DNA of 64,000 nt from an uncultured Syntrophaceae bacterium (GTDB lineage: Bacteria; Desulfobacterota; Syntrophia; Syntrophales; UBA8958). Positions 58,064 to 62,725 of the stretch are shown one piece after another. Under the pieces are notes generated by a model. It was given only the letters and a program-made list of their open reading frames with translations. It had not been told where the DNA came from and ran no database searches. Both the position numbers and the translations under genes were made by a program. Numbering within the stretch: the first letter of the stretch is position 1; every line of letters begins with the position of its first letter. The DNA is taken from NCBI GenBank assembly GCA_964492965.1, contig CAZBME010000006.1, positions 5,672 through 69,671 of the forward strand, read 5' to 3'.

Positions 58064-59440
58064 TCAGAGGGGACGGACGCCGTCCCAGCATTTCAGGCAG
58101 AGGTCCTGCCGCGGGATGCCCAGGGCGGATACGAAGGCATCTATGCTGTTGTATTTGACGGAGTCGGCATCGATTTGTCCGGCGATCCATGTTTCGAGAC
58201 ATCTCAGATCTTCCAGATCCTGAATCTGGCCTGTGGGAAAACACTGACGGGCCACCAGCTCGTCCAGAGAGCGGGTGGAAACGCCGAAATCGCAGGGATA
58301 CAGCAGAGGAGGGCAGGCAATCCGCACGTGCACTTCCCTGGCCCCGGCCTTTTTAAGGTCCCGGACCTTGTCCCGGATCTGGGTGCCCCGGACGATGGAG
58401 TCATCGCAAATCACGATTTTTTTCCCCTCCACGGCGTATTTCAGGACCGATAGTTTCCGCTTGGCCATCCTTTCCCGGGCACCCTGGCTGGACTGGGTAT
58501 AGCTCCGGTCGGCATAACGGTTATAAAGAAAGACATCCTGGTAATGAATCTTGGAATGTTCATGATAACCCAAGGCGTGGCCGATGCCGGACATGGGCAC
58601 GGGGGCGACGATGTCCGCCGTCATGCCCTGCTCCTCAATGTCACGCTGCGCAAGACTCCGGCCAAGGTGGTTGCGGGCCTCCTGAACGTATAACCCGTCG
58701 ATAATGGAATCGATACTGGCCGTGTAAGCCCATTCGAAACAGCAGTGGGCCTTGCGGGGAGACGGGAGTTGCTTCAGGGTTTGAAATCCCTTCTCATTAA
58801 TCAGGACGATTTCACCCGGCCGGACATCGCGGTAGATGTCCATGTCCATGTTTTGAATGGCCCGCGATTCGGAGCTTACGGCGAAGCGTTTTGCGTCCTG
58901 GCCCAGGATAAGAGGACGGAAGCCGTAAACGTCCCTTGTTGCATAGATGCCTTCCGCGGAGAGGATGACAAGGGCATAGGCCCCTTTGACCCTTTGAGCC
59001 AAAGCCGTGAGGCCGGAGACCATGTCGTCGGCTTCCATGATGGTTTTGGCGATGACTTCGATATTATAACCCCGGTAGAAAGCATGCCCCTGATTCTTCA
59101 TCTCTGCGATCAGGGACTCGGCGTTGATGATGTTCCCGCTGAAGGCAAGCGATATTTCCCCGAGCCTGGATTGCCATGTCATGGGTTGCCTTTCCCAGAG
59201 ACTCACATGCCCTATGCCCCATCGGCCGTGAAGATATTCAAGATCCTGCTCCGAAAAGGCAATACCGGCCTTGCCGTGGTGAGTTACCTGACGGATGCCC
59301 TTGTCATAGGTGGAAATGCCGCAGAATTCCTGCCCCCGGTGCTGAAGAAAGTCAATGCCGTTGTAGATATCATAGGTGCAAGGAGACTGGGAGTAGAGAC
59401 CAAAAATGCCGCAGTTGTCTTTTAGTTCGCTCATAACCAT
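58064..59440 (-). CDS. Divergent amidophosphoribosyltransferase-like protein (Ntn-GATase plus PRTase plus Fe-S Cys pattern), second copy
   Basis: 458 aa. It keeps NCGIFGLYS, HRGQEFCGI, FSGNI, ICDDSIVRGTQ and the Cys residues (AHCCFEW, ACPPLLYPCDFG, CLKCWDG). However, the canonical GHVRYSTTG reads GHVSLWERQ. Confidence 0.7.
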   Translation of the reverse strand: MVMSELKDNCGIFGLYSQSPCTYDIYNGIDFLQHRGQEFCGISTYDKGIRQVTHHGKAGIAFSEQDLEYLHGRWGIGHVSLWERQPMTWQSRLGEISLAFSGNIINAESLIAEMKNQGHAFYRGYNIEVIAKTIMEADDMVSGLTALAQRVKGAYALVILSAEGIYATRDVYGFRPLILGQDAKRFAVSSESRAIQNMDMDIYRDVRPGEIVLINEKGFQTLKQLPSPRKAHCCFEWAYTASIDSIIDGLYVQEARNHLGRSLAQRDIEEQGMTADIVAPVPMSGIGHALGYHEHSKIHYQDVFLYNRYADRSYTQSSQGARERMAKRKLSVLKYAVEGKKIVICDDSIVRGTQIRDKVRDLKKAGAREVHVRIACPPLLYPCDFGVSTRSLDELVARQCFPTGQIQDLEDLRCLETWIAGQIDADSVKYNSIDAFVSALGIPRQDLCLKCWDGVRPL

Positions 59441-59448
59441 CCTTTAAA

Positions 59449-62500: not shown

Positions 62501-62725
62501 CGTCAGCGACTGGAGATTCAGGGGTTCGATATAGGTGACGTCGGCGGTGCCCGGATCGGTCATAATGGTGGCCGGGTTGGAGTTGACCAGGACAATTTCA
62601 TAGCCGAGTTTGCGCAGGGCTTTGCAGGCCTGGGTGCCTGAGTAGTCGAACTCGCAGGCCTGGCCGATGACAATGGGACCGGAACCGATGATGAGGACTT
62701 TGTGGATGTCATTTCGCTTTGGCAT
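59522..62725 (-). CDS. carB: Carbamoyl-phosphate synthase large subunit, second full-length copy (no adjacent small subunit)
   Basis: Part of track ORF 59522..62749. I prefer ATG 62725 (AAGGAG 8 nt upstream; [37 protein letters not shown]). It has both ATP-grasp halves and an MGS-like C-terminus. By eye it is clearly similar to, but well diverged from, the copy at 31081-34302 over the N-terminal 230 residues. Confidence 0.9.
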   Translation of the reverse strand: MPKRNDIHKVLIIGSGPIVIGQACEFDYSGTQACKALRKLGYEIVLVNSNPATIMTDPGTADVTYIEPLNLQSLTEIIENERPDAILPNLGGQTGLNLTSELHKAGILEKHNIKVIGVQVDAIERGEDRIAFKETMNRLGIDMPKSEPAYTIEEAEKIAATLGYPVVVRPAYTMGGTGGGLVYNLEELRTVASRGISASLVGQILIEESVLGWEELELEVVRDAKNQMITVCFIENVDAMGVHTGDSYCTAPMLTITSELQARLQKHSYDIVEAIEVIGGTNVQFAHDPETGRIVVIEINPRTSRSSALASKATGFPIAFVSSLLAGGLTLDEIPYWRDGTLEKYTPGGDYVVVKFARWDFEKFPGALDKLGTQMRAVGEVMSIGKNYKEALHKAIRSLEKGRYGLGFVKDFNKKPLEDLMELLSEPSSERQFIMYEALRKGADIETLHQRTHIKTWFINQMKELVDREEEILKYKGQALPDALLKQAKLDGFSDRYLAQILGIPETDMRKRRIALGIVECWDAVPVSGVEDAAYYYSTYNAPDRVGVSSNKKIMVLGGGPNRIGQGIEFDYCCVHAAFTLRDEGYESIMINCNPETVSTDYDTSNKLYFEPLTVEDVLSIYEKEKPEGVIVQFGGQTPLNIAQQLADAGVRIIGTSPETIDLAEDRDRFRKMMDKLDIPMPASGMAINMEEAIVVANRIGYPLMVRPSYVLGGRGMEVVHDDEMLKRYVLAAVGVAPERPILIDKYLENAIECEADAISDGQDAFVPAIMEHIELAGVHSGDSACVIPPISISARHMDTINDYTRRIAVEFGVVGLMNIQYAIAGDMVYILEANPRASRTVPLVSKVCNISMARIATQVMLGKKLADLGLKHRSFPHFGVKEAVFPFNMFQEVDPLLGPEMRSTGEVLGLADSFGLAFYKAEEAAQQVLPSEGSVLITVSDKDKGGALEVARSFHKLGFSIKTTNGTRKFLAENGIPSEALLKMHEGRPHIVDAIMNGSVQLVINTPSGRMSQNDDSYIRKAAIKYKIPYITTIAAAVAAAKGITALRQGHGRAKSLQSYHKDIGN

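Follow-up and report, generated by a model that had tools for sequence, protein, structure and literature searches.

A conserved carB-purF gene pair without carA in an uncultured Syntrophaceae bacterium: a candidate ammonia-using route to carbamoyl phosphate and phosphoribosylamine

Layout of the two gene sets

The stretch of DNA analysed here (64 kb, GC = 54%; hereafter the window) belongs to contig CAZBME010000006.1 of an uncultured Syntrophaceae bacterium (GenBank assembly GCA_964492965.1) and contains two gene sets, both on the minus strand, in which a gene for the large subunit of carbamoyl phosphate synthetase (CPS), carB, is followed by a purF-type gene for a phosphoribosyl pyrophosphate (PRPP) amidotransferase. 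The second pair, carB2-purF2, is the subject of this report, and the first set, carA-guaA-carB1-purF1 (cluster 1), serves as its canonical comparison. An earlier note, made from the DNA sequence without database searches, had described two full-length carB genes, each encoding two ATP-grasp halves and an MGS-like tail and each followed on the same strand by a purF-type gene, with no carA near the second pair. Our analysis confirmed this description. Both open reading frames are full length, Pfam recovers the domains in both proteins, purF1 overlaps the carB1 stop by 1 nt and purF2 follows carB2 after a gap of 81 nt. The search for a second carA that the note had proposed was run within the 64-kb window and found none, as a blastx comparison with the window CarA matched only positions 35856-36995. 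This sole carA lies 22 kb from carB2-purF2.

59522-62725, minus strand: carB2, 1067 aa, a complete CPS large subunit of the 'orphan' CarB2-type clade
58064-59440, minus strand: purF2, 458 aa, a non-canonical PRPP amidotransferase, C-type member of the PurF' superclade (see below)
59441-59521, minus strand: carB2-purF2 intergenic spacer, 81 nt
62734-62739, minus strand: Shine-Dalgarno sequence AAGGAG, 8 nt ahead of the carB2 ATG
62804-62832, minus strand: promoter-like TTGACA-17 nt-TATATA upstream of carB2, read by eye and weak
57993-58026, minus strand: GC-rich hairpin of 15 bp, about 40 nt past the purF2 stop
29660-36995, minus strand: canonical comparison cluster carA-guaA-carB1-purF1
35856-36995, minus strand: carA (cluster 1), catalytic triad C269/H353/E355 intact
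34330-35859, minus strand: guaA (cluster 1)
31081-34302, minus strand: carB1 (cluster 1), full-length reading frame with Pfam domains and an NCBIfam match
29660-31081, minus strand: purF1 (cluster 1), TIGR01134 = 500 bits, canonical residue signature

The pair is a self-contained two-gene operon in the order carB2 then purF2. The mechanical reading frame of carB2 extends to a GTG at 62749, and the ATG at 62725 is taken as the start, being preceded by AAGGAG and agreeing with the MPKR N-termini of the orthologues; purF2 has an alternative start at 59434 that would give 456 aa. The promoter-like hexamers stand about 80 nt upstream of the carB2 ATG. The hairpin behind purF2 is the likely operon terminator, and the 73-nt stretch around it (57990-58062) folds at -36.7 kcal/mol, with z = -5.7 against shuffled sequences. 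A scan for consensus promoters and terminators listed nothing at the ends of the carB2-purF2 operon: the promoter-like element was passed over because its second hexamer ends in A where the stricter consensus demands T, and the hairpin because its T-tail is short. Neither a whole-window Rfam scan at gathering thresholds nor an E-value scan of 57700-63100 returned a credible riboswitch or leader RNA.

Clades, conserved linkage and related gene orders

CarB2 and CarB1 share 53% identity and PurF2 and PurF1 share 34%. CarB1 is 60-64% identical to the CarBs of E. coli, Fibrobacter and an Omnitrophica metagenome-assembled genome (MAG), while CarB2 is 49% identical to E. coli CarB and 67% identical to the CarB of a MAG labelled Planctomycetales (locus L012), with which it forms a clade in 200 of 200 neighbour-joining bootstraps. 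All trees were neighbour-joining trees of modest samples, and on these comparisons CarB2 and PurF2 each belong to a separate, old clade apart from carB1-purF1. The description of the two sets as a duplicated gene couple was therefore not upheld, since the identities and the trees place each gene in a different ancient clade and rule out a recent duplication of carB1-purF1. A search with the L012 CarB showed that the CarB2-type clade is large and includes Omnitrophota, Elusimicrobia, Dehalococcoidia and Aerophobetes.

Related loci (numbered with an L) were collected through a scan of species-representative genomes, a metagenome scan and exact-protein look-ups. A PurF2 orthologue, at 62-84% identity, is encoded in 51 distinct loci, and a CarB2 orthologue lies directly upstream on the same strand in 46 of the 48 loci that extend at least 300 nt in that direction. 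The earlier note had regarded a carB-purF adjacency not conserved elsewhere as evidence against its proposal; the adjacency is conserved. The full-length CarB2 orthologues at these loci are 76-88% identical to CarB2, and most gaps between the two genes measure 1-30 nt, with a median of about 21 nt. Where the source carries a name, it is given as Syntrophales, Syntrophaceae, Syntrophus, Desulfobaccales or 'Deltaproteobacteria' MAGs. Two loci, L063 and L102, break the pattern; in the former, the gene for the PurF2 orthologue sits between a Glu_synthase-domain gene and a glutamine-type NadE gene. Comparison of eight loci of group A with their flanks revealed only carB2 and purF2 as common to all of them, with differing flanks and no third conserved operon gene. 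No intact carA was found in the operon or in flanks of up to 9 kb at about 50 related loci. The only CarA matches there are 5' fragments of carA in two loci (L073:12336-12467 and L088:6494-6700; 44-69 codons, 70-72% identical to the window CarA, ending in stops) about 3-4 kb downstream of purF2, after a hisF-like reading frame; pseudogenes or breaks in the assembly may explain them. A carB close to a purF is also seen outside the non-canonical pair: a Fibrobacter contig (L105:8001-15603) has the order carA-carB-pyrG-purF with a canonical PurF.

Beyond these orthologues, PurF2 belongs with a wider group of PurF-like proteins. Absence of the N-terminal Cys is the defining mark of PurF', a set of archaeal PurF paralogues of unknown function (Brown et al. 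2011, PMC3261824). We use PurF' for the superclade in which PurF2 groups with Cys-less proteins that resemble them, and C-type for the members that retain the Cys. PurF' genes at 47-60% identity to PurF2 occur in several contexts. In 16 loci the order is purF', a carA-like gene and carB, preceded by the ATP-pyrophosphatase part of guaA only, and the genes often overlap. The catalytic Cys of the CarA-like protein is lost (C269 to G, A or S) in 15 aligned purF'-carA-carB loci and in L014, and of the 13 sequences that extend to H353 and E355, 12 have these replaced as well and L040 keeps both. The HisH glutaminase that adjoins in L037 is intact, with its Cys, His and Glu kept. Named relatives of the L037 protein come mostly from Candidatus Omnitrophica/Omnitrophota. 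This dead CarA looks like the bacterial equivalent of the glutaminase domain that is dead in vertebrate CPS I.

L030-L059 and L094 (e.g. L037:10323-11357), also L014:2658-3464: dead CarA family, encoded between purF' and carB

Other PurF' genes are found inside purine operons. L045 and L048 contain purP-purB-HAD-purF'-purM-purL-purQ operons with no carB, and L024 has the order purF'-gatB-gatA-purS-purL. Because of this placement among purine-biosynthesis genes, C-type PurF' most likely still makes phosphoribosylamine (PRA). In L050, L055 and L060 purF' adjoins a canonical-like purF. L012 combines a CarB2-type gene with one for a Cys-less PurF' starting MSGIFG, the two overlapping by 4 nt. In an Omnitrophota genome and an Elusimicrobia MAG the CarB2-type gene stands by itself, with neither carA nor purF within 8 kb, so a gene of this type is not always followed by PurF'. 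Adjacency to carB is likewise not general in the PurF' superclade, as P0123, P0125 and P0135 have other neighbours. A single clade of all PurF'-linked CarBs was suggested by a tree with two outgroups and failed, at 9 of 200 bootstraps, once three more canonical CarBs were added. In a MAG contig labelled Candidatus Omnitrophica (L103:1553-10677), a canonical carA-carB lies beside a transposase gene and a CarB2-type carB follows 3.4 kb downstream (77% identical to CarB2 over 419 aa, cut by the end of the locus). Cys-less PurF-like proteins starting MSGLFG are encoded in the Patescibacteria MAGs L011 (2400-3830) and L013 (5995-7362), the L011 gene being flanked by miaA and a MiaB-type radical-SAM gene. 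Purine synthesis is generally missing from Patescibacteria.

Residues kept and lost in CarB2 and PurF2

Both CarB2 and CarB1 consist of two preATP-grasp/ATP-grasp halves (CPSase_L_D1/D2), an oligomerisation domain (D3) and the MGS-like tail, and both pass the NCBIfam cut-offs for CarB. NF003671 scores were 1502 bits for CarB2 and 1722 bits for CarB1 against a cut-off of 599, and the second curated CarB model (NF003671/TIGR01369 test) scored CarB2 at 1357 bits against a cut-off of 1027. Residues were checked in E. coli numbering, verified against E. coli CarB, at positions that we take to be its catalytic, tunnel and allosteric sites. No listed residue of either phosphorylation site or either K+ loop is changed in CarB2 and its orthologues. 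Also conserved are the ammonia gate C232/A251/A314 (cited in PMC4655335), the carbamate tunnel and the residues of the ornithine site and the site for uridine and inosine monophosphate (UMP/IMP). By this check CarB2 is catalytically complete, and it passes every sequence test for CarB except that of a linked small subunit. Conservation of both effector sites also bears on the proposal of a second CPSase/PRPP-amidotransferase set divided between arginine and pyrimidine synthesis: a separately transcribed set, conserved in 46 of 48 loci, stands, and the arginine- versus pyrimidine-specific division finds no support.

In a comparison of 13 CarB2-type with 5 canonical CarB sequences, 68 positions were conserved within both groups yet occupied by different residues. 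These clade-specific switches are unevenly distributed: the carboxyphosphate domain has 46 in 224 positions and the oligomerisation domain 10 in 39, against 10 in 179 for the homologous carbamoyl-phosphate domain (Fisher p = 1e-5). Hot spots lie at residues 201-280, 321-360 and 521-560 and include Y261Q and R265Q; R265 presumably lines the tunnel wall at the subunit interface, as in the E. coli CPS structure. The pattern suggests that the N-terminal and oligomerisation domains of CarB2 have been specifically remodelled, where contact with a small subunit would be affected.

PurF2 matches the B. subtilis PurF 1AO0 at E = 9e-71, although its TIGR01134 score of 306 bits falls below the cut-off of 350. 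The motifs that the earlier note had listed as kept (NCGIFG, HRGQE, DDSIVRGT and the Fe-S cysteines) are all present, and four cysteines, C233, C383, C448 and C451, align with the 4Fe-4S ligands. The two replacements it had listed were also found, GHVSLWERQ standing in place of GHVRYSTTG with an 8-residue deletion in the glutamine loop, and FSGNI in place of HNGNL; further changes were D127, F334/I335 to Y/T and T374 to Q. The alignment of catalytic residues that the note had recommended demonstrated that Cys1 and G102 are kept, together with R26 and G27 beside the Cys1 nucleophile, and that R73, N101 and D127 are replaced. The class-defining losses are R73S, Y74L, N101S, F334Y, I335T and T374Q in addition to the loop deletion; D127 is Asn in PurF2 and variable in its orthologues. 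At positions 1, 26, 73, 74, 101 and 127 the PurF2 signature thus reads C-R-S-L-S-N, whereas C-R-R-Y-N-D is common to all 89 canonical PurF representatives used, which were cluster representatives from an exhaustive profile-free search. Canonical PurF has 64 alignment columns conserved at 93% or more, and PurF2 and its five closest relatives in the alignment nevertheless retain about 50 of them. The class-defining changes sit on the glutamine site and the channel lining, T374Q alone falling in the PRPP loop after DDSIVRGT. The PRPP site and the Fe-S ligands are spared, and glutamine recognition, the glutamine loop and the channel lining are rebuilt.

PurF2 groups in the neighbour-joining tree with a non-canonical set in which R73 is nearly always Ser and many members have no Cys1. 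Since it falls short of the PurF score and the glutamine-site signature, and equally lacks the Cys loss that defines PurF', we treat it as part of a distinct C-type class within the non-canonical group. Residues conserved in this class and absent from canonical PurF are Asn at -1, C40, F100, H293, Q354 (T374Q), S388 and R390. The Asn before Cys1 and the extra cysteine C40 each occur in 93% of C-type PurF', and canonical PurF has neither. Another cysteine absent from canonical PurF, C21, is invariant in a 5-sequence alignment of the class and nearly so in an 11-sequence one. In PurF2 numbering these class features are residues 9, 21 and 40.

Nitrogen supply to the pair and its gene neighbourhood

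The reading that we tentatively favour, with rather less than even confidence, is that carB2-purF2 provides a second route to carbamoyl phosphate and PRA, one that is independent of CarA and probably uses ammonia. CarB2 would convert bicarbonate, two ATP and ammonia to carbamoyl phosphate, the ammonia entering directly through the retained internal tunnel without a dedicated class-I glutaminase. PurF2 would convert PRPP to PRA with a nitrogen donor that is not bound as canonical PurF binds glutamine, free ammonia being the likeliest. Direct use of ammonia would spare the ATP of glutamine synthetase, which could suit an energy-limited syntroph in ammonium-rich habitats. We favour this route because no glutaminase gene accompanies about 50 operons and the CarA of the sister gene orders is dead, and because CarB2 is altered in its N-terminal and oligomerisation domains yet appears intact in its chemistry. 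The linkage conserved in 46 of 48 loci, the CarB2-type genes that stand alone and the place of C-type PurF' in purine operons were also counted in its favour. The same evidence (operons without carA, sister CarAs without the triad, remodelled CarB2 domains) makes the earlier suggestion of an ammonia-dependent CPSase a reasonable one. Ammonia use by PurF2 is suggested because glutamine contacts and channel lining are lost and because Cys1 mutants of E. coli PurF lose the use of glutamine and keep that of ammonia, according to work cited in PMC3261824. An ammonia-dependent role has also been proposed for archaeal PurF' (PMC3261824).

Several observations weigh against this route. Chief among them is that Cys1 and its partners are strictly conserved. 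Cys1 is kept in 85 of 85 C-type PurF' sequences, in which Q24, R26, Q28 and H71 are kept in at least 96% and N103 in 92%, and the same five residues decay in 30 Cys-less relatives. An enzyme that used ammonia alone should have no need of Cys1 and its partners, so the Ntn (N-terminal nucleophile) site is probably still active on some substrate; the Ntn core looks alive without the canonical glutamine contacts, and none of the models considered here would fully account for it. CarB2 may in addition use the window CarA in trans, given its intact tunnel and gate, the intact CarA 22 kb away and the arrangement in L103. The contrast in CarB switches was drawn from a small canonical sample, and the placing of the small subunit on the N-terminal and oligomerisation domains, as the CarA-facing half, is an assumption carried over from E. 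coli CPS. Finally, the Rfam, leader and operator scans found no regulatory element linking carB2-purF2 to nitrogen status.

These points lead to the most serious competitor, an unlikely though substantial one, in which both proteins are ordinary isozymes: CarB2 would work with the single CarA of the genome in trans, PurF2 would bind glutamine in a non-canonical pocket, and the two would differ from cluster 1 in regulation or kinetics only. Besides the intact tunnel, gate and carA, and the canonical carA-carB near the CarB2-type gene in L103, such isozymes would explain the purifying selection on the Cys1/R26/G27/G102 core of PurF2 and the presence of C-type PurF' in purine operons beside an intact PurQ glutaminase. 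They are harder to reconcile with the replacement of R73, N101 and D127, invariant in the 89 canonical PurFs, together with the replacement of Y74 and a loop shorter by 8 residues. The concentration of CarB2-type switches, R265Q included, in the N-terminal and oligomerisation domains also counts against them, as do the 16 aligned loci in which PurF' genes directly precede a CarA without its catalytic Cys.

A different role for PurF2 is distinctly less probable. The protein could use another amide donor at Cys1 or another nucleophile at the PRPP site, or it could sense PRPP or nucleotides as a pseudoenzyme and so regulate CarB2 or canonical PurF. Its own conserved residues, absent from canonical PurF, would fit such a role, as would the occurrence of purF' beside canonical-like purF in L050, L055 and L060 and the Cys-less relatives next to tRNA-modification genes in Patescibacteria. 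A purF' gene beside canonical purF has also been reported for Crenarchaeota (PMC3261824). Nevertheless, the PRPP loop and most phosphoribosyltransferase residues are canonical, the purine-operon contexts argue for the normal reaction, and the neighbouring genes yield no candidate alternative substrate.

We consider it improbable, and if anything slightly more so, that the class-II Ntn domain of PurF2 feeds ammonia to CarB2 in place of the class-I CarA, either by docking or, in loci of the Omnitrophota type, through the dead CarA as an adaptor. The earlier note had raised such a takeover of nitrogen delivery to CarB, and more broadly the pair could couple a reaction on an amide donor other than glutamine. 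Cys1-bearing PurF' is indeed repeatedly and tightly linked, in two gene orders, to CPS genes without an active glutaminase. In L012 and L037 the genes overlap by 4 nt or nearly abut. The residues that normally seal the ammonia channel of PurF itself are changed (Y74, F334, I335 and the glutamine loop), and the remodelled domains of CarB2 are those that presumably form the small-subunit site in E. coli CPS. However, three glutamine-contact residues are lost, and the partner in L012 has no Cys, close relatives carrying Gly there. Solo CarB2-type genes in other phyla and C-type PurF' in purine operons without carB also count against it, and the full PRPP site and Fe-S ligands that PurF2 keeps would be unneeded by a mere glutaminase. 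Decay to a functionless duplicate is scarcely credible: PurF2 does fall below the TIGR01134 cut-off and has lost canonical residues, but both reading frames are intact, CarB2 is 76-88% and PurF2 62-84% identical across about 50 loci with shuffled flanks, and every checked catalytic residue of CarB2 is kept.

Comparison with known systems helps to place the pair. CarB2 has the four-domain architecture of its counterpart in E. coli CarAB and the same ATP-site, tunnel, ornithine and UMP/IMP residues, and differs in its 49% identity, in the 68 clade-specific substitutions and in the absence of carA from the operon. Vertebrate CPS I, in which the catalytic Cys is Ser, takes ammonia from solution (PMC4655335). 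The likeness to it would be that of a CPS working without glutamine hydrolysis, and the Cys of the Omnitrophota-type CarA is replaced as in CPS I. Unlike CPS I, the carB2 operon has no small subunit gene and belongs to a bacterial two-subunit background, with no evidence of N-acetylglutamate control. With the B. subtilis-type Fe-S PurF (1AO0), PurF2 shares the layout of Ntn and phosphoribosyltransferase domains, a propeptide before Cys1, the PRPP loop and the four ligand cysteines; it differs by R73S, Y74L, N101S, D127N, F334Y, I335T and T374Q, by the loop deletion and by its score below the cut-off. Like archaeal PurF', PurF2 is a second, non-canonical PurF next to nucleotide genes, and the Cys-less PurF-like representatives share R73S and the glutamine-loop deletion with it and group with it in the tree. 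PurF2 and 84 relatives differ from archaeal PurF' in keeping Cys1 and its catalytic neighbours, and a linkage to carB is not described in PMC3261824.

Two CPS large subunits in one genome also recall the dual CPS of Bacillus, where an arginine-specific CarAB and a pyrimidine-specific PyrAA/PyrAB each have their own active small subunit and their own pathway operon. Here, in contrast, CarB2 has no small subunit gene, is paired with a PurF-like gene and keeps the effector sites of both pathways. Our literature search found no description of a carB-purF' operon or of a bacterial CarA without its triad, although an earlier description elsewhere is possible.

CPS and PurF are the textbook cases of glutamine amidotransferases that have ammonia tunnels. 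A widespread bacterial CarB clade to which no glutaminase is linked, bacterial CarAs without the triad and a PurF class whose nucleophile is live although its glutamine pocket is gone would be signs that nucleotide synthesis independent of glutamine evolved repeatedly in anaerobes. Because such genes are annotated plainly as carB, carA and purF, pathway reconstructions assume glutamine dependence. The enzymes come from familiar families and the ordinary reading may hold; in either case carB2-purF2 offers a concrete system for probing the function of archaeal and bacterial PurF', a question open since at least 2011.

The operon shares the window with a nitrogen-assimilation neighbourhood (37220-51778), and its glutamate dehydrogenase, NrpR, type III glutamine synthetase and split glutamate synthase were counted in favour of the ammonia-using route.

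37220-39529: type III glutamine synthetase (GS-III)
39460-44545: parts of a split, archaeal-style glutamate synthase
44776-46332: sigma-54 GAF activator
49337-50692: glutamate dehydrogenase (GDH)
50741-51778: NrpR-type regulator

NrpR belongs to a family best known from methanogens. Its operator GGAA-N6-TTCC occurs 4 times in the window, which is the chance level, and none of the occurrences is near carB2. The split glutamate synthase cluster is headed by a 371-aa reading frame starting MCRLFAITS (43430-44545, minus strand), which has no Pfam match at E <= 0.001 and occupies the place expected for a class-II amidotransferase subunit. A second glutamate-synthase-like set (21666-27210, minus strand) lies directly downstream of purF1 and encodes an 882-aa protein with GXGXG and a weak class-II glutamine amidotransferase match, a Glu_synthase FMN-domain protein and a ferredoxin-plus-Glu_synthase protein; an FAD/Fe-S oxidase at 27257-29101 comes after this set. 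Directly downstream of the carB2-purF2 operon, a 949-aa reading frame (54856-57705, minus strand) encodes an aldehyde:ferredoxin oxidoreductase (AFOR_N, AFOR_C) fused to an iron-containing alcohol dehydrogenase (Fe-ADH, ADH_Fe_C), and a homologue occupies the same position in L007.

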